Under the pieces are notes generated by a model. The model was not told the origin of the DNA. It worked only from the letters and a program-made list of their open reading frames with translations, and ran no database searches. From a virus (Duplodnaviria > Caudoviricetes), in the IMG/VR virus record IMGVR_UViG_3300049988_000245, positions 128,001 through 192,000 of that record: a DNA stretch of 64,000 bases. One strand, 5' to 3'. The position numbers and the translations under genes are program-made. This document shows, one piece after another, positions 2,846 to 15,029 of this stretch. Numbering within the stretch: the stretch's first letter is position 1; the number at the start of each line of letters is the position of its first letter.

Positions 2846-3316
2846 TTATTTAGAATCAGCCGCTTCTAAGGTGTCGATGTGAGCCATCATGAATTCGTAG
2901 AGGACAGCATTAAGCTCAACGTCCCGCTCACAGTAGGGAACCATCTCAGGATGAAAATTGTCGAAACCCTTATCGTACTTGATTTTCGGAAATTCGAAAA
3001 TTTCACCCCAGGTTTCTAGCCGATGATTAGGCATTTGCTTGAAGAGCTTACGGCTCAGTTCCACGGTATCGATGATCTTGGATTCGTCCAACTTGATCAA
3101 TCCATCGGTAAGATTCTCGATGACTTTTGCGTCGTACGATTTGAAGTTGTGTCCAATAATAATATCAGCTTCCGCTAGACGCATAAGCCCTTCTGGAACT
3201 TCGTCGTCCCCAACGTATGATTTGTACTCGCCGGTCTCCATATCTTTGATTCCAACAACGTAAATCTTGGTCGGTTTAAGTCCATTTGTCTCAAGATCGC
3301 CGACGAGTATACTCAT
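2846..3316 (-). CDS. Stand-alone DnaQ/PolA-type 3'-5' exonuclease
   Basis: ExoI DLETNGL, ExoII GHNFKSYD, ExoIII YCERD; start moved to MSILV. Confidence 0.8.
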   Translation of the reverse strand: MSILVGDLETNGLKPTKIYVVGIKDMETGEYKSYVGDDEVPEGLMRLAEADIIIGHNFKSYDAKVIENLTDGLIKLDESKIIDTVELSRKLFKQMPNHRLETWGEIFEFPKIKYDKGFDNFHPEMVPYCERDVELNAVLYEFMMAHIDTLEAADSK

Positions 3317-3386
3317 TTTAAACCTAAAAAAATATGATTCTATAATGGAACTCTGCCAAATAGAATAAGTCAAAGCTATATAAAAA

Positions 3387-3953
3387 TTATGGTAGACCAG
3401 CGGGTCTTAAGCTGCCTGCACGAAAATCAAAACGAACTTCGATTCTAGTCACATTATTGCGAGCGTTGTACTGAAACGCCGAAAAAACCCAGATCGTGGA
3501 TGACACCGGGGTGGGACTGACAATTCTCTGCCGGGTAGGGGATTTTTCACCCGCAATAACCAATGTATTTCTTCTGCTGTCATAGTAGAAGAGCGAGATT
3601 TCACCATTAGTTGCTGCGCTAGGCGGCCTAAAAAACTCACCATCCGCGAATACGGTATACAAAGATACAGGCGTGTCAAATACAAGGTAGTAAAGAGGGG
3701 CGACCGTGTTTTGGTCGATAGGGTAACTTGGACGTTGAATATTCAGATAGTAAAGAGAATCATCTACTTTCTGAATCTGGTATGGAATGTTTATATAGAA
3801 ATCAAAACCTTTGCCCGCAAATTCGGGATAGTTTAAGTCTGCCTCTCTCGGCTTTTCAGGAGCGTATCTTCCAAACCTTAGAGAAAAAAGTTCTTTTTTT
3901 ACGGCTTTGAATTTCACACAACCGTCAACGTTAACCAGACCTCCGATATCCAT
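3387..3953 (-). CDS. Hypothetical beta-rich protein (AT-rich gene)
   Basis: 188-aa ORF with upstream TAAATA (3978-3983). Confidence 0.55.
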   Translation of the reverse strand: MDIGGLVNVDGCVKFKAVKKELFSLRFGRYAPEKPREADLNYPEFAGKGFDFYINIPYQIQKVDDSLYYLNIQRPSYPIDQNTVAPLYYLVFDTPVSLYTVFADGEFFRPPSAATNGEISLFYYDSRRNTLVIAGEKSPTRQRIVSPTPVSSTIWVFSAFQYNARNNVTRIEVRFDFRAGSLRPAGLP

Positions 3954-5498: not shown

Positions 5499-5782
5499 TG
5501 CATCCCATTTTGTTAGCTGCGGTCCAGTTTTTTCGGTTCGACGATGGCGTAACGCCCGCGATTGTAGTGTTCGTGGGTGATCTCGCGGCGCGATGTCACA
5601 TGGAAGATGAATTCTTGAAACACTTGCCACCCCGGCATGACGCAGTGGAATTCTTTGATTGGTGTGATGAACGCGGACTGAAACCCATGCTGGAGCAAGA
5701 TGAGCCGGATGAAAACCTCTGGACGGTCAAAATTCCTGACCCGACGATTCGGTTCGAATTCCGTATGCGCTGGGGCAACTGA
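5498..5782 (+). CDS. FKxRW-family small protein (member 3)
   Basis: TGATG overlap; DWCDERG ... IPDPTIRFEFRMRWGN. Confidence 0.7.
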   Translation: MHPILLAAVQFFRFDDGVTPAIVVFVGDLAARCHMEDEFLKHLPPRHDAVEFFDWCDERGLKPMLEQDEPDENLWTVKIPDPTIRFEFRMRWGN

Positions 5783-6114
5783 TGGCAACGTTCTTCGACA
5801 TCGACGACCCGATCATCCGGAGGCTCAATTTCAAGCAAATTGGGGACGATTTCGCTGGTCTGTACCGGGTCGCACCGAGGTGGGACCCCCTGGTGGAGCA
5901 TACGATTAACCCTCAGGAGGATTATGCGCCTGACTTTCAGGAAATGATCGACTTTGTCCAGTCGGATGCTTTGCTCGGACAGATGTATGTGGAATACTAC
6001 GACCCGTTCAAGATGGCTGCTTCCAATGGTGGACGAATCGTCCGCTACCACAGCATCAATTTCTATTTTACCGACTCGGCTACGGCGTTCGCATTTAAGA
6101 TGAGGTTCGGCTGA
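5782..6114 (+). CDS. FKxRW-family small protein (member 4)
   Basis: TGATG overlap; ends FYFTDSATAFAFKMRFG. Confidence 0.7.
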   Translation: MATFFDIDDPIIRRLNFKQIGDDFAGLYRVAPRWDPLVEHTINPQEDYAPDFQEMIDFVQSDALLGQMYVEYYDPFKMAASNGGRIVRYHSINFYFTDSATAFAFKMRFG

Positions 6115-6338
6115 TGGCCAAGCAGGCGGTATATTCGAGTTCCGAGTGGAAACAACCGGCGCGTATGCCCCATGGGGTAAGGATAAAAGTGGATTCTCAT
6201 CCCTGGTCTGAGATCAAAGGGTGGCTTAGAGACCGCAGTCATATTGGGGTGTTCCGGTTCGACGAAGGTGCGTTTCACAACGTATTCTGGTTTTCGAACG
6301 AGAACACGGCGTTCGAGTTCAAGGTACGATTTGGATGA
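6114..6338 (+). CDS. FKxRW-family small protein (member 5)
   Basis: TGATG overlap; KGWLRDR ... WFSNENTAFEFKVRFG. Confidence 0.7.
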   Translation: MAKQAVYSSSEWKQPARMPHGVRIKVDSHPWSEIKGWLRDRSHIGVFRFDEGAFHNVFWFSNENTAFEFKVRFG

Positions 6339-6955
6339 AAATTTTCTTCAAACCGGAAGATCGCTCGTACTTGTATTATGCGAACGCCCGTGGTCGCGAC
6401 ATCTGCGCGAAGCTAAACTTCATGGGGCGGCTGGTCCTGCGTGCGGAGGGATGGCGGGTCGAGCCGAACAGCATCTTCCATCCTGATGGTTCTTATCGAT
6501 TTTTCGAGAACGGTTTTCTTGGAAATGGTGCCGGAGAGGGCGTACCGTTCATCGACGATCTGCGGATGGCCAAGCGTCAGGCGAGGGAGATGTTCCGAAG
6601 GATCGAGCGGCGGACCTACCGGAACGCTTTCCGCATGTGCCGGTCAGATATCTTCCGTGAGCGGATGTCTGGCCTTACAAGTGAGAAGAAGGTCCGCCGC
6701 TGGAGTCAGAACGGAGAACTTCGACACGCTCCGAAGGCGCTGCGGTATCCGATGTTCATTGGGGATGACTTCGATTCCCTCCCCGAGGGGATGGAGGAGT
6801 GGCTGAACACGCGCGACTGCACTCTTCCTACGTTGGAAGGGACCTGCTTCACCACCAAGCGGATGACCCGCTCGATTACCCACCGGGTGCATGACGTGAT
6901 GATCGACTTTCCCGATCGAGAGACGGCGTTCGAGTTCAAAATGAGGTGGCTTTGA
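6335..6955 (+). CDS. FKxRW-family protein with long N-terminal extension (member 6)
   Basis: ATGA overlap; EEWLNTR ... DFPDRETAFEFKMRWL. Confidence 0.7.
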   Translation: MKIFFKPEDRSYLYYANARGRDICAKLNFMGRLVLRAEGWRVEPNSIFHPDGSYRFFENGFLGNGAGEGVPFIDDLRMAKRQAREMFRRIERRTYRNAFRMCRSDIFRERMSGLTSEKKVRRWSQNGELRHAPKALRYPMFIGDDFDSLPEGMEEWLNTRDCTLPTLEGTCFTTKRMTRSITHRVHDVMIDFPDRETAFEFKMRWL

Positions 6956-7041
6956 TGTTGCGCAAGCTGTTCGGACGCAATGACGGCATGGGGATTACCA
7001 TCTGTCTGAAGGCGATTGATGCGATCAGGATTTCCGTATGA
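6955..7041 (+). CDS. 28-aa bridging mini-ORF (MLRKLFGRNDGMGITICLKAIDAIRISV)
   Basis: Starts in the TGATG of member 6 and stops in the ATGA of member 7. Confidence 0.45.
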   Translation: MLRKLFGRNDGMGITICLKAIDAIRISV

Positions 7042-7406
7042 AAATATCTGCGCTTGCTGTAATCGCTTGTGTCGTAACCGGTTCTCTCGTGCTCGGAGTG
7101 TACTGGCTTGCCTTGGCATACCAAAATCGAGTCAACAAAATAAAATATCTGGAGTATACTAGGGAATTAAGAAACGCGATAAAGAATCCACATTATAGGA
7201 TTGTATGGGACTTTAGAAATAAAACATCAATTAATCAATGTATAAATTGGAACGTTAACGAACAAAAAATTGACCTTAGCCAAGAAGTTATCAGTTGGCT
7301 TGATGAAAACTGTCCAGAAGTACGGGTTATGCAGGACGATTACGATCTCCTAATAATTTTTACGAACGAAGAGGACAAATTCCATTTTAAGATGAGATGG
7401 ATGTGA
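7038..7406 (+). CDS. FKxRW-family protein with N-terminal membrane anchor (member 7, AT-rich gene)
   Basis: Hydrophobic N-terminus; SWLDENCP ... IFTNEEDKFHFKMRWM. Confidence 0.7.
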   Translation: MKISALAVIACVVTGSLVLGVYWLALAYQNRVNKIKYLEYTRELRNAIKNPHYRIVWDFRNKTSINQCINWNVNEQKIDLSQEVISWLDENCPEVRVMQDDYDLLIIFTNEEDKFHFKMRWM

Positions 7407-7762
7407 TGGACCTGCAATTCTGGATCGGATTCTGGATAATATGGGGGAGTTGGATTCCGGCGATCTTTGCAATCCTCTCCGACTTGGATGGGGATCGGGT
7501 ACGACGTGAGCGCAAGGCGATTCTGCGCGGGCCATCCTTGTGCATCGAAGGAAAGCCCTTGATACAGGAGTTTCCGGAGATTCAGAAGCTGGAGCGCTCT
7601 GCCAGACCCGTCAGATCGGGTGGGGCGCTGTACGCCGAGGTGTGCGAATGGTGCGATAAATTCCTCAAGAGCCCTCCCCGGTACTATCGGGACAATCGGC
7701 GCCCCTACGCGGTGTTCCGTTATCCGGACGACGCGTTCCAGTTCAAGCTGCGGTGGCTATGA
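7406..7762 (+). CDS. FKxRW-family protein with N-terminal membrane anchor (member 8)
   Basis: FWIGFWIIWGSWIPAIFAIL; EWCDKF ... FRYPDDAFQFKLRWL. Confidence 0.7.
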   Translation: MDLQFWIGFWIIWGSWIPAIFAILSDLDGDRVRRERKAILRGPSLCIEGKPLIQEFPEIQKLERSARPVRSGGALYAEVCEWCDKFLKSPPRYYRDNRRPYAVFRYPDDAFQFKLRWL

Positions 7763-8154
7763 TGCTAGTGGGGATTCTGACAGGAGTGATCCTCTCGGTT
7801 GGATTTATCGGCGGGGCTATCGGTCTGAAGAAGTATCGCGCAAGGATGCAGGAGTTCGATCGAAGAATCCGGGAGTATGATCTCCTCCTGCTCCGAGCGA
7901 AGCCGAATTTCATCTTTTCCCTGGGCAATATTTCAGACACGCGCGGTACCCATATATCTTCGCCAGCTTCCCAATACGAATGGATTCGCTATGACCTGCG
8001 GCATGGTCTGTTCGAGGTTCATCCTGACGTGATCAAGTGGTGCGACGAACTTGCACCCGGATATGTGGTGGAGAATGACGAGCAATCTGGTGAGATGATC
8101 CTCGCCTTTGCCAACGAGAACGACAGGTTTCATTTTAAGATGAGGTGGTTGTGA
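7759..8154 (+). CDS. FKxRW-family protein with N-terminal membrane anchor (member 9)
   Basis: LVGILTGVILSVGFIGGAIGL; KWCDELAP ... FANENDRFHFKMRWL. Confidence 0.7.
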   Translation: MMLVGILTGVILSVGFIGGAIGLKKYRARMQEFDRRIREYDLLLLRAKPNFIFSLGNISDTRGTHISSPASQYEWIRYDLRHGLFEVHPDVIKWCDELAPGYVVENDEQSGEMILAFANENDRFHFKMRWL

Positions 8155-8348
8155 TGCCAATATTCTTCGTACCCCCGCAGCATCGCACATGCCCGGATTG
8201 TGATGTCCTTGTTCCGATAGCTATTTCGGTTGCAGTCGTAGTTTTTACGATAGTCTTTCTCTGTGCCGCTGTATTCCTGATCGGATTCGTAGAAAGGCGA
8301 ATTTGTAAGAAGCCAATCAGTAATCGGATCATAGAGAAACCAAAATGA
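8154..8348 (+). CDS. Small membrane protein with CxxC
   Basis: TGATG overlap; CPDC followed by a long hydrophobic stretch. Confidence 0.5.
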   Translation: MPIFFVPPQHRTCPDCDVLVPIAISVAVVVFTIVFLCAAVFLIGFVERRICKKPISNRIIEKPK

Positions 8349-8349
8349 T

Positions 8350-9042
8350 ACTGAGAGGCCGAGCTACGCTCAGCCTGCTGTGTGCTTGCTTGTTCACTGA
8401 CGTTCACTTCGCTTCACCACAGCGAAATATCTTAAAGATCATTCATCCTTGATCTCGAAAGATCATCGCTTTATTCTCCCCCTCCACTTGAGACATAATG
8501 GTTTCAAGAAACAATTATCACTCAAGTGGAAGAGAAGATGGTTCGGTTGTCTCGATGAGTCAATCGTTCAACAAGCCACGTAGCTGATTCTACTCAGCGC
8601 AGGCGGTTACCCGGTACCTGCTTTGCAGCCCAATCTCGGCATGATTCCTTCTGAAACTGATGTAGGGAGGGTCCACGCATGTGCTCATCGAGCCCTTTCA
8701 TGCCTGGGTCTTGCCATCCAGCGAATCTGTTTTATCTGCCTAACGGTCGTTGCTTTTGCAACACTCACACCACCAGACTGTTGAAGCATCGGTGGTGCGC
8801 AGGAACGGGCCAAAGGTCGTCGAAGGCACACGTTTCCTGTCATTTTAGGTGCGTTTTGCGAAAATCCCTTGGGATTCGCCGAGCCGCCGTTTTCGTCGCC
8901 CGAGGGGCGCATCGATCCGTCTCGTGGGCCGTCTTTGCCGAGGGTCCGGTCTACAGGTCGATGACCCTCAGTTCCCGGATGCCAGTTTGTGGGCGGAGCA
9001 ACCCGATGACGCAGGCTCCTAGACGTATGCTTGGTTCAAGAT
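8350..9042 (-). ncRNA. Candidate large structured non-coding RNA (class unknown)
   Basis: No convincing ORF; TAAATA promoter at 9053-9048; many helices (8474-8536, 8599-8621, 8749-8762, 8858-8879, 8940-8969). Confidence 0.55.
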
Positions 9043-9073
9043 GGTTATATTTATCGTTCATCGTTTTCAATAT

Positions 9074-9090
9074 ATTTCGTTGAACCAAAA
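9074..9090. promoter_or_regulatory. Palindromic operator-like site
   Basis: ATTTCGT-TGA-ACCAAAA between the ncRNA promoter and the HAD gene. Confidence 0.5.
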
Positions 9091-9114
9091 ATGAATTTCT
9101 GCTATTGCCCCATC

Positions 9115-9609
9115 ATGTGTGATCTCCTTTCGCTCCCCAAGCTCGACCATCCTCTGCTCGATCCTCACGCGATCATCGCCTGGGATATGGACGGGACGCT
9201 CATCGACGGTCCGAACGCGAAGTTTTTTCGCGCGTACATTCTCGCTCATCCCGAGAAGCAACATCACATTGTCACGTTCCGGACCGGACCGGCTCTGCGA
9301 ATCACTGAGGTGGAGATGTGGAAGGACGAGTGCGTGTACGAGTTGTTCCACCTCGGCGTCCCCCATGGGACGATCAAGCAGACTCACTCGATGCCCGACC
9401 ACCTCTATCACGCCTGGGCGCAGCGGAAGAGCTTCATCCAAGAGACCGAGGTCGCCGCGTTCCTTGACTGGAAGGGGAAGACCGCCGCAGAGATAGGCGC
9501 CACCGTGATGATCGATGATATGCCCGGAATGGTGAAGAAGGGCTGCGCCAAGTACGGAGTGACGTTCATCGACGCCCATAGTAAACAGTTCGGCTACGAG
9601 GGCGAATGA
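9115..9609 (+). CDS. HAD-superfamily hydrolase/phosphatase
   Basis: Motif I WDMDGTL and motif IV MIDD; start could be 9091 or 9115. Confidence 0.75.
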   Translation: MCDLLSLPKLDHPLLDPHAIIAWDMDGTLIDGPNAKFFRAYILAHPEKQHHIVTFRTGPALRITEVEMWKDECVYELFHLGVPHGTIKQTHSMPDHLYHAWAQRKSFIQETEVAAFLDWKGKTAAEIGATVMIDDMPGMVKKGCAKYGVTFIDAHSKQFGYEGE

Positions 9610-13284: not shown

Positions 13285-13365
13285 AAAGTTCCCCCTTGGA
13301 ATGACACCCATCCATAGGCAAAAACTTTGCCGAGATCGAGGCGAATCCCGGACACAACGCGACAA

Positions 13366-13371
13366 TAAATA
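13366..13371 (+). promoter_or_regulatory. T4-like late promoter core, 5 nt before ATG
   Basis: TAAATA-CCGTC-ATG(13377). Confidence 0.6.
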
Positions 13372-13376
13372 CCGTC

Positions 13377-14057
13377 ATGCGTTACCAAGAATTTGCCCGA
13401 CCCATTGTGAATGAGATCGAAACGAACGCCCAGATGGGCGATGACGCGTTTATTGATCATCTCCATAAAGATGACTTCAGCGGTCGTCAGTTGGACCTGT
13501 TCAGGGAAATCCCGTCGCTGGAGCCAGACATTCCACCGAACTATAAGTTCGTGGGTCGGCTCGGTGAATTCTTCGTCGCCAAACGGAACAAAGAACGCGG
13601 GAATCCCTACACCAGCTACGTATTCTTCAATCGAGATTCAGCACTCGGATATGTCTCGCTCGCCGCGTATGACCGGTCGGCCTCGCAGTATCCCGCCCAT
13701 GCCCCGGAGGCGCCCGAACTGTCCGGCATCGGACTTCGCATCCATGGGGTGCAAGTACAGCCGAAGTTCCGAGGTCAGGGCCTGGGTTTGAAAATGTACA
13801 AGTGGCTGTTGGAGAACGTCTGCGACTACTTGATGGCCGATGACGTACAGACTCCCGATGGCGTCGCGCTGTGGAAACGCCTCCAGGCGCAATCGAACAT
13901 CTTCACCGTCGAGGTCTGGGACGGTGAGAAGTTCGAATCTCGCTTCCGAAAGCGTGGGCGGGATTTTAATTACGTGTACGACAAATGCCACCTCATCCCA
14001 TGGGTAACGATCCCGTCGAAATACGAAATGGTTATCGAACATCCTGACAACAACTAA
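13377..14057 (+). CDS. GNAT-like acetyltransferase with capsid-targeting-like N-terminus
   Basis: IHGVQVQPKFRGQGLGLKMY acetyl-CoA motif A; QTPDGVALWKRL; N-terminus MRYQEF...VNE. Confidence 0.7.
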   Translation: MRYQEFARPIVNEIETNAQMGDDAFIDHLHKDDFSGRQLDLFREIPSLEPDIPPNYKFVGRLGEFFVAKRNKERGNPYTSYVFFNRDSALGYVSLAAYDRSASQYPAHAPEAPELSGIGLRIHGVQVQPKFRGQGLGLKMYKWLLENVCDYLMADDVQTPDGVALWKRLQAQSNIFTVEVWDGEKFESRFRKRGRDFNYVYDKCHLIPWVTIPSKYEMVIEHPDNN

Positions 14058-14638: not shown

Positions 14639-15029
14639 TACGCTCCTCGTAATGGAGCTTGCGGTGGCAGTTTGCGCAGAGAACAATGCATTTGGCGATC
14701 TCCCGCATGACACGTTTTCGCGCGGCTCGTGCGATCAGCGTGGCGACTCCGCCATCTTCCTTGTCGCCATTGGGATGGTGAAAATCGAGACAACCGGGGT
14801 GATTTTCTGGACAGCGCTCACATACAAGCGTTGACTTGTATTCGTGAAACCAAATCTTAGTTGTCTTCCTCTGAATAACTCTTTTCTTGAGATAAAAATC
14901 CTTATTTTCGAGGTAATGTTCTCGACGATAGGATTTTTGACAAACTTTACACTTTGATTGATGTCCGTTCCCACGCTTATTAAAGCAGGAAAACTCTTTC
15001 TGTTCTTTACAGTCACTGCATGTTCTCAT
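14625..15029 (-). CDS. HNH endonuclease (homing-type), AT-rich
   Basis: CSDC..CKVC zinc finger, CERC..LDFHH..KCIVLCANCHR; TAAATA 4 nt before ATG. Confidence 0.8.
   Translation of the reverse strand: MRTCSDCKEQKEFSCFNKRGNGHQSKCKVCQKSYRREHYLENKDFYLKKRVIQRKTTKIWFHEYKSTLVCERCPENHPGCLDFHHPNGDKEDGGVATLIARAARKRVMREIAKCIVLCANCHRKLHYEERITSL

Follow-up and report, generated by a model that had tools for sequence, protein, structure and literature searches.

The RNAs ROOL and GOLLD are large and pseudoknotted, are found in prophages and often lie near tRNA genes (PMC5737381). ROOL has a mean length of 581 nt, contains many multistem junctions and several pseudoknots, and is a stand-alone RNA borne by phages and prophages that also occurs outside of them (PMC5737381; PMC12286853). 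In size and complexity it is exceeded only by ribosomal RNAs, GOLLD and group II introns (PMC5737381). Here we describe a locus in a 64,000-nt stretch of phage DNA, referred to as the window (bases 128,001–192,000 of the 265.9-kb IMG/VR record IMGVR_UViG_3300049988_000245, whose completeness is estimated at 57%). Judged from its sequence and that of its homologs, positions 8356–9035 on the minus strand are a stand-alone RNA gene and belong to a real, new family of large pseudoknotted RNAs. This RNA resembles ROOL and GOLLD in that its length is similar to that of ROOL, in its junctions and pseudoknots, in being carried by phages as well as outside of them, in the tRNA genes nearby and in forming a gene of its own. 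It differs from both in that it matches neither covariance model in sequence or structure, and in its hosts, which are Alphaproteobacteria and their jumbo phages rather than mostly Firmicutes and related groups. It differs further in being present in two to four diverged, evenly spaced copies per megaphage and in having integrase and resolvase neighbours in bacteria.

For the large subunit of topoisomerase II of the phage, identity is 57% with Sinorhizobium phage Phosso, 51% with Agrobacterium phage Atu_ph07 and about 44% with RaK2/GAP32-like phages. Hence, by this protein, the source of the window is a jumbo phage of the wider lineage of Atu_ph07 and RaK2. The sequencing runs containing the RNA stretch originate from leaf and silage metagenomes. 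The RNA lies in a gap of about 740 nt (8349–9090) between plus-strand genes that end at 8348 and restart at 9091. Only three long open reading frames (ORFs) are found inside this gap (8679–9083 on the plus strand, 8135–8407 and 8685–8912 on the minus strand); their translations are junk-like, they are not retained in relatives and codon periodicity is absent. With these ORFs discounted, the gap is the longest gene-free stretch of the window, as a first-pass annotation of this DNA had claimed, the runner-up measuring 377 nt. Compared to shuffled sequence, it folds with z-scores of −5.8 on the minus strand and −3.4 on the plus strand.

Relatives were gathered via the HAD-like protein encoded next to the gap, which has 19 relatives in a large protein collection, and their contigs were then compared (labels L and G denote the contigs or loci and the genomes compared, respectively). 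A gene-free gap of 700–1,400 nt is present nearby in every fetched contig that reaches far enough. The gaps of 11 related metagenomic contigs are homologous to that of the window at the DNA level, with 62–95% identity over 450–790 nt; the flanking HAD-like protein is only 50–88% identical across the same relatives. In these 12 homologs, the window included, DNA conservation begins and ends at the boundaries of the RNA. The RNA was not found beside the HAD homologs on L098 and L101, one of these contigs being too short and the other offering a different context. Comparison with a 95%-identical relative from a sequencing run reveals two differences in 8691–9090 versus about 40 in the part of the HAD gene spanning 9092–9420, so that the non-coding stretch is the most constrained sequence of its neighbourhood. 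At the sequence level, this shows that the RNA is under stronger purifying selection than the adjoining protein gene.

The homologs were folded with RNAalifold on four overlapping MAFFT blocks of 11–12 sequences. Compensatory double changes are seen in 49 of the 109 predicted pairs (10/23, 17/33, 15/34 and 7/19 in the individual blocks), while column-shuffled controls for three of the blocks yielded on average 0.7–1.7 such pairs and at most six. In these MAFFT alignments, which were not fitted to any structure, standard pairs occupy 95.6% of the cells, and 77% of the cells that changed still pair. We further aligned 23 sequences with a covariance model of a 160-nt core (8722–8566); this alignment is fitted to the model and hence biased towards the structure. 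With this bias, 97.7% of the cells pair, 25 of the 32 pairs have changed on both sides and 155 of the 171 changed cells (91%) still pair; the covariation score is 0.53, compared to 0.15 after shuffling and 0.02–0.07 when the pairing partners are slid. The sequence comparison thus shows that the helices are maintained by compensatory changes, and the description of the region as highly structured in the first-pass annotation is borne out by both the folding z-scores and the covariation among homologs.

Three tertiary pairings tie these helices together (positions in Table 1). The first, PK1, is an H-type pseudoknot at the 5′ end that changes in step in 21 sequences, with the variants GGGU/ACCC, GUGC/GCGC, GCGG/CCGC, CGGU/ACCG and UGGC/GCCA. 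In the second, PK2, the most conserved hairpin contributes its tetraloop, which pairs with a joining strand; in 21 sequences, 17 compensatory cells support this pairing and none contradicts it. The third, PK3, is a contact of 6 bp between a hairpin loop and a strand about 210 nt downstream, whose partners vary in step across almost every lineage (CUCCAAC/GUUGGA, CUUCAU/AUGAAG, CCAUGACC/GGUCAUGG, CCGCAU/AUGCGG and CUCGAC/GUCGAG). These sequence changes show that the RNA has one compact fold of several domains, in which at least three long-range or pseudoknot contacts connect its 5′, middle and 3′ parts. At about 680 nt, it exceeds the 500 nt used to define a large ornate RNA (ROOL, GOLLD, OLE) operationally and has the many covarying helices, multistem junctions and pseudoknots that this definition asks for. 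Most helices picked out by eye in the first-pass annotation are retained with compensatory changes, namely GGAGC/GCTCC, GCGAA..TTCGC (8858–8879), ACCACC/GGTGGT, GTTGC/GCAAC (8748–8763), GCAGG/CCTGC (8599–8621) and the long hairpin at 8475–8538. The proposed GAGGGTC/GACCCTC helix (8940–8969) is not general, as it lies in an insertion that the window shares with L002 and L004 only; what is conserved at this site is the helix UCCGG/CCGGA (8979–8975 with 8949–8945).

The G·U pairs of the RNA reveal its orientation. Such pairs are invariant or frequent in the core, for example a U·G in 23 of 23 and a G·U in 21 of 23 sequences. At the base of hairpin P20, U/C variation stands opposite a fixed G, which gives G·U on the minus strand only, and the internal pair of the terminal hairpin is U·G in eight and C·G in two of 11 sequences. 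Since the G·U pairs of P20 and of the terminal hairpin would become A·C mismatches on the plus strand, the sense strand of the RNA is shown by the sequences to be the minus strand; the alignment folding energy is also lower in the minus sense in every block.

A promoter-like arrangement on the minus strand, consisting of an A/T-rich stretch, TTGAC, a spacer of 17–18 nt and an element of the CTAT, CTAA or TAAC type, is kept across the lineages. Its −10-type element lies 8–13 nt ahead of the conserved AUACG at which sequence conservation starts. The rhizobial sigma-70 consensus is CTTGAC-N17-CTATAT, and the promoter of the RNA resembles it. We thus infer that the conserved promoter is of the host sigma-70 type. 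The first-pass annotation had proposed a phage late promoter on the basis of a TAAATA box, and this box is indeed present and the 7-mer ATAAATA enriched in the window (11 observed versus 1.7 expected), but the promoter shared by the family is the host-type one. At this locus, the box is confined to the window and its closest relative, L002, and it would at most add late expression in the phage of the window. An operator-like palindrome that had been noted at 9074 turned out to be a weak 5-bp inverted repeat overlapping the −35 element, which we judge not to be meaningful. The ATAAATA sites of the window are located at 1563, 3978, 9048, 13365, 15034, 15533, 17753, 36810, 37840, 45487 and 48782. 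Several of them lie 4–6 nt before a start codon (13365–13371 before the ATG at 13377; 15040–15034 before the gene starting at 15029), a placement consistent with leaderless or near-leaderless genes under T4-type late promoters.

The RNA could not be assigned to any described family. Searches against Rfam 15 gave no match for the window region at gathering scores or at E-values up to 10, RNase P RNA, tmRNA, 6S and SRP RNA included, and none for the distant copies and bacterial loci described below at E-values up to 1 or 0.1. The covariance models of GOLLD (RF01998) and ROOL (RF03087) likewise matched neither the window (E-values up to 10) nor the distant copies or the bacterial loci, and no match was obtained with the models of group I and II introns, HEARO and other mobile RNAs. 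This agrees with the earlier remark that core motifs of RNase P, tmRNA and group I introns are missing. Like group II introns, RNase P and group I ribozymes, the RNA is large and compactly folded with tertiary pairings between loops and strands, and introns also occur in several copies per genome. Unlike them, it has no model match, no flanking exons and no ORF for a reverse transcriptase or homing endonuclease, but a promoter of its own. A group I or II intron is ruled out by the missing Rfam match, by this promoter directly upstream and by the flanking genes on the other strand. A protein-coding gene is ruled out as well, because diversity is flat over the three phases (0.34, 0.36 and 0.37, while the HAD gene has 0.34, 0.27 and 0.50) and the longest frames free of stops change from one homolog to the next. 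The search for a coding frame conserved in relatives, which would have spoken against the non-coding nature claimed at first, thus found none. Conservation, covariation, G·U pairs, the conserved promoter and the lack of an Rfam match together support the original proposal of a new large non-coding RNA on the minus strand. A published description of the RNA was found neither in Rfam nor in the searchable literature.

In the window and in three relatives (L002, L003 and L005), the downstream genes lie on the opposite strand and converge on the RNA. Hence, in these phages it is a stand-alone RNA and not a leader. The features of the gene are compiled in Table 1. From the closing hairpin, we infer that the 3′ end of the RNA lies at the foot of this element (8356); a terminator scan did not find a terminator-like site at the RNA 3′ end.

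Table 1. Features of the RNA gene and its promoter region (window positions)
Feature	Position	Strand	Remarks
−35-like hexamer TTGAAA	9065..9070	−	A/T-rich stretch ahead; aligned to TTGAC(A/G/T/C), present in the megaphage copies and 10 of 12 close homologs
−10-like element TATAAC / TAACCA	9042..9049	−	15–17 nt past the −35; aligns with CTAACA, CTATCA and CTATAC of relatives
ATAAATA, T4-late-type box (TAAATA of the first-pass annotation)	9048..9054	−	Inside the promoter spacer; at this locus only in the window and L002
RNA gene, about 680 nt	8356..9035	−	Putative 5′ end near 9035 (within 7 nt), past the −10; 3′ end at the foot of the terminal hairpin
5′ domain, conserved AUACG first	8930..9028	−	Closed by P1, CGUCU 9025–9021 with AGACG 8934–8930; 5/5 pairs of P1 with compensatory changes (21 sequences, 27 cells)
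Hairpin P2, with PK1	8991..9019	−	GGAGC 9019–9015 with GCUCC 8999–8995; P2 covaries
PK1	within 8991..9019	−	Loop GGGU 9004–9001 with GCCC 8994–8991; in-step changes
P3, UCCGG with CCGGA	8945..8979	−	Covaries (CCGG to CCCG/CGGG, CGGG/CCCG); encloses the lineage-specific insert with GAGGGTC/GACCCTC, missing from L003, L005, L007, L008 and L099
Junction region	8851..8924	−	GAG 8923–8921 with CUC 8883–8881; hairpin CGCCC/GGGCG 8909–8897; GCG 8887–8885 with CGC 8853–8851; hairpin 8879–8858; compensatory changes, hairpin sequences vary among relatives with stems retained
Hairpin P11, CGCACCAC.. with ..GUGGUGUG	8766..8799	−	Loop UUCAAC 8785–8780 (PK3); seven stem pairs with compensatory changes
Hairpin P12, UGUUGC with GCAACG	8748..8763	−	Every pair covaries
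Joining strand GUUAGGC	8738..8744	−	GUUA 8744–8741 with UAAC 8609–8606 (PK2); GGC with GCC 8640–8638, 3 covarying pairs
Stem-loop domain	8659..8718	−	GAUG/CAUC, 8718–8715 with 8662–8659; GCAUG/CAUGC, 8703–8699 with 8681–8677; helices 1–4 of the core model; conserved GGCAAG, UGAAAG and GCACA at internal positions
Most conserved core, CCGAGA and three-way junction	8574..8640	−	GGCUGC/GUGGCU; GCAGGU..GCCUGC 8621–8599 with GNRA-type loop (GUAA, GCAA, GAAA, GUGA); GCUGA/UCAGC 8598–8583; helices 5–8 of the core model pair in 100% and 98% of cells, with invariant G·U pairs
GUUGAA, partner of the P11 loop (PK3)	8567..8572	−	6 bp changing in step
Long hairpin P20, base UCUUCUCU with GGGGGAGA	8475..8538	−	Upper part variable in length and sequence, replaced yet kept in relatives
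Conserved tail past P20, AAUAAAG..GAUCU	8459..8474	−	AAAG..AUCUAGG in distant copies
Variable 3′ region	8377..8458	−	G+C 0.43 versus 0.55–0.57 in the core; aligns poorly
3′ terminal G+C-rich hairpin, AGGCUGAGC with GCUCGGCCU	8356..8376	−	Internal U·G; 3–4 covarying pairs; no U tract after it
HAD-like (DxDxT) gene	9091..9609	+	Divergent neighbour of the RNA promoter

The genes around the RNA are partly retained. The HAD-like homolog of Phosso is annotated as polynucleotide kinase, and the HAD-like neighbour stays with the RNA in the close clade and at one copy each in a 561-kb and a 578-kb phage. An Smr gene adjoins the RNA in the window, which elsewhere contains an RNA ligase gene and tRNA genes, the latter about 6 kb from the RNA. 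An antisense ORF of 170 codons (9067–9579, minus strand) shadows the HAD-like gene and is also seen in relatives such as L242; it was rejected as a gene and is an artefact of composition. To the left of the RNA, the plus-strand genes at 5782–8154 form a tandem paralog family with a C-terminal ..FKMRW.. motif, homologs of which are present upstream of the RNA in L003, L005 and L099 as well. L007 has another gene-free stretch, about 640 nt in length (3145–3780), between the RNA 3′ end and the next minus-strand gene. By Pfam labels, a toxin-antitoxin pair of the PIN/MazE type and a regulator of the LuxR type (Autoind_bind + GerE) are encoded a few kb away from the RNA in relatives (L009 10238–10851; L010 9051–9803).

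More distant copies were sought in several collections. A blastn search with the RNA region gave no match in 50,697 phage records, and IMG/VR returned nothing for either peptide patterns of the two flanking proteins or an exact 24-mer from the long hairpin. A 17-nt hairpin pattern had 86 matches in IMG/VR, two of which gave weak partial nhmmer matches (L085 and L086), and both were confirmed by the covariance model. A pattern of 51 invariant columns matched a single locus in metagenomes (L097) and nothing in the viral and genome collections. A looser pattern gave more than 120 matches in genome contigs, mostly by chance in G+C-rich genomes, of which four passed the covariance model.

By the core model, three megaphages well outside the clade contain the RNA more than once, in diverged copies of full length. 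Two diverged copies are located at 205 and 475 kb of the 561-kb phage G001, and four at 97, 218, 389 and 539 kb of the complete 578-kb phage G007, which has terminal repeats; the latter are 61–65% identical to one another. Phage G008 (608 kb) has a topoisomerase with 73% identity to that of the window and carries three copies, one of which matches the core model in part. The Smr gene and the divergent HAD-like neighbour are both retained at one copy in G001 and at one in G007. By this gene order, these are the syntenic copies, and the remaining ones are old paralogs. Genes for tRNAs are found near one copy of G001 and about 6 kb from one copy of G007 (L232). We analyzed the spacing of the copies in these complete or near-complete genomes by treating the maps as circles and computing the chance that random points are spread at least as evenly, which assumes that all copies were detected. 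On these assumptions, the p-values are 0.004 for G007, 0.036 for G001 and 0.10 for G008, with a Fisher's combined p of 0.0012.

Among cultivable phages, Atu_ph07 (MF403008.1) harbors candidate copies in two unannotated gaps, at 382156–384352 (2.2 kb) and at 489783–490380 plus 1–243 (about 840 nt across the record start). These sequences (L285, L286 and L287) are about 76% identical to each other over about 270 nt, have the same TTTATAAAAAAC-containing stretch ahead and very A/T-rich DNA behind, and keep the signature hairpin as well as the conserved motifs in their order, although the core model detects the hairpin only. The two loci span 383.1–383.7 kb and 490.1 kb to base 68 of the record. 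They are thus probable homologs of the RNA on sequence grounds, and they are not evenly placed in the genome. The two gaps are not mentioned in the Atu_ph07 paper. No match was found in Phosso by model, pattern or BLAST. The RaK2-like phages GAP32, XbC2 and BF gave no core-model match, the single pattern match in BF lying inside a coding sequence. An unannotated gap of 909 nt in GAP32 (L298 46383–47291; NC_019401.1 261382–262290) has a promoter-like start and contains GACCGUU, CCGAG and a C-run/G-run hairpin followed by GAUGAAAA, its three short motifs standing in the order of the window RNA. We take this as a lead to distant homology, not as evidence of it.

The first-pass annotation had described a phage RNA, and the RNA does occur in phages but is not restricted to them, as full-length copies reside on integrative elements of Alphaproteobacteria. 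The pattern scan followed by the model identified it in four alphaproteobacterial genomes of soil and leaf bacteria. In Microvirga sp. 2MCAF38, a full-length copy lies between a resolvase and an integrase-like gene; it starts within about 16 nt after the latter and faces the former. Methylobacterium variabile shows a partial match to the model, as does a Caulobacteraceae metagenome-assembled genome, where the match lies in a tRNA-integrase island (L147) with an adjoining tRNA. The chromosome of Caenispirillum salinarum (G005) has full-length copies at 678197–678324 and 699499–699626 (L237 and L239). Each is contained in one arm of an inverted repeat whose arms, at least 1.86 kb long and about 21 kb apart, are 100% identical, and a resolvase gene adjoins the L143 copy. 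A SIR2-like gene is found near a Caenispirillum copy, and the repeats could be an invertible or composite mobile element. Homologous resolvases are present on the 3′ side of the RNA in three non-phage loci, namely L097, Caenispirillum and Microvirga.

Transcription data are sparse. A phyllosphere metatranscriptome and a run guessed to be RNA (X16 and X15) each contain a single 151-nt contig of a relative's RNA; DNA carry-over is possible, and the contigs give neither strand nor ends. Run X4 covers the flanking genes just as it does the RNA and hence behaves like DNA, and the raw-read RNA run X21 yielded 0 reads, which is too little to count either way.

How might such an RNA function? The reading that we favour, with a probability we would place just short of even, is that it acts in trans via its three-dimensional fold, as a particle or ribonucleoprotein of the ROOL/GOLLD kind. 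This analogy is drawn because size, knottedness, carriers and the tRNA and RNA-repair surroundings match. Host RNA polymerase would transcribe the RNA from the predicted sigma-70-type promoter, so that it would be made from early in infection, and the late-type ATAAATA in the spacer may prolong expression in the phage of the window. Diverged paralogs in one genome would supply variant particles. The RNA-repair and tRNA neighbourhood (HAD/Pnk-like, Smr, tRNAs and RNA ligase) hints at a role in a host conflict related to RNA or translation. RNAs of this group that were found earlier proved to be ribozymes or unprecedented RNA-only assemblies. Several observations weigh against a trans-acting particle of this kind, which predicts neither the even spacing of the copies in three megaphages nor the recurrent recombinase neighbours in bacteria. 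Moreover, since no function is known for ROOL and GOLLD themselves, the likeness says little on biochemistry. In addition, none of the sequencing runs shows transcription, strand or ends, and the closing hairpin lacks a U tract, so that the 3′ end is a putative one.

The main alternative, unlikely but serious, is that the RNA is the pre-primer of a replication origin, an origin being also the alternative raised in the first-pass annotation. It would account better for the even spacing, the host-type promoter, the location of the RNA between diverging gene blocks in several relatives, the resolvase neighbours and the 3′ region of lower G+C content. Each copy would mark an origin at which the fold of the host-made transcript lets its 3′ part stay hybridised to the template in this 3′ region and the resulting R-loop primes the leading strand; megaphages would use several such origins, and small integrative elements a single one, as a Rep-independent replicon after excision. 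Precedents are ColE1 RNA II (about 550 nt) and oriF and oriG of T4, where a long transcript made by the host polymerase needs its fold. Genomes of the T4 type have several such origins, and plasmids typically have a resolvase nearby. The RNA of the window shares with these a host-polymerase promoter, which is conserved in all lineages, a long transcript and resolvase neighbours, since a resolvase adjoins it in bacteria and L097, as often at plasmid origins, and integrases do so too. In addition, the megaphage copies are more evenly spaced than expected by chance. Five relatives have the RNA at a point of divergence between leftward and rightward gene blocks, with a gene of the RNase H fold following it (a faint or weak PF13482 match in three). 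The structured part is followed by a poorly conserved stretch of lower G+C content, which is very A/T-rich in the Atu_ph07 copies. However, the RNA is far more elaborate and pseudoknotted than these precedents, and conserved structure extending over 680 nt, with three pseudoknots that covary, is not known from any primer RNA. Neither an antisense partner like RNA I nor a middle promoter of the MotA type was seen, although no search was aimed at them. The unit is closed by a conserved G+C-rich hairpin, and in the window the converging gene begins only 8 nt beyond it, so that an unwinding element would have no space outside the transcript. The spacing test takes the maps as circular and detection as complete, and the Atu_ph07 copies are uneven. 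Cumulative GC skew, which the first-pass annotation had suggested as a check on an origin, was analyzed in G007: skew and gene-strand switches coincide with only two of the four copies in a genome full of switches, so that the copies are not singled out and no clear pattern emerges. Somewhat less probable still is that the RNA represents a previously unknown kind of origin, with a large pseudoknotted pre-primer RNA firing several evenly spaced origins in megaphages and serving as a protein-free replicon on islands.

The recombinase neighbours could instead indicate that the RNA drives its own spread, either as a selfish ribozyme-like element or as a guide or scaffold for the adjacent serine or tyrosine recombinases, a reading that we consider improbable. 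The several diverged copies per megaphage genome, the tight placement in Microvirga next to an integrase-like gene and opposite a resolvase, the homologous resolvases at the RNA 3′ end and the inverted repeats of Caenispirillum would all fit such an element. Yet no recombinase adjoins any phage copy, and the 61–65% identity between copies of one genome points to old paralogs rather than recent transpositions. By eye, no target duplications and no terminal repeats were seen around the phage copies, and neither intron, HEARO nor other mobile-RNA models match.

A leader controlling the downstream minus-strand genes in cis, for instance a giant riboswitch or an attenuator, would fit L007–L010, L099 and L100, where minus-strand genes start 60–640 nt past the RNA; this is very improbable, as the reading is contradicted in the window by the converging genes, the downstream genes differ by lineage and the closing hairpin intervenes. 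We give next to no credence to a decayed gene or a DNA-level site (for packaging or as a protein-binding array) with incidental structure, even though the locus adjoins a tandem paralog family in which gene decay is plausible and both strands fold better than shuffled sequence, because compensatory changes far above every control contradict it, as do the G·U asymmetry, the conservation across phages with differing flanking genes and in bacteria, and the lack of codon periodicity and of a conserved frame.

Bacterial and phage RNAs of such size and complexity are very rare. The RNA described here adds a further class of about 680 nt, common to uncultured jumbo phages of leaves and silage, megaphages of 560–608 kb and mobile islands of Alphaproteobacteria. 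Its loci are unannotated gaps in public records, two of them in Atu_ph07, and this cultivable phage with its probable diverged copies opens the RNA to experiment. The even spacing of the copies ties the RNA to the question of how phage genomes of half a megabase start their replication.

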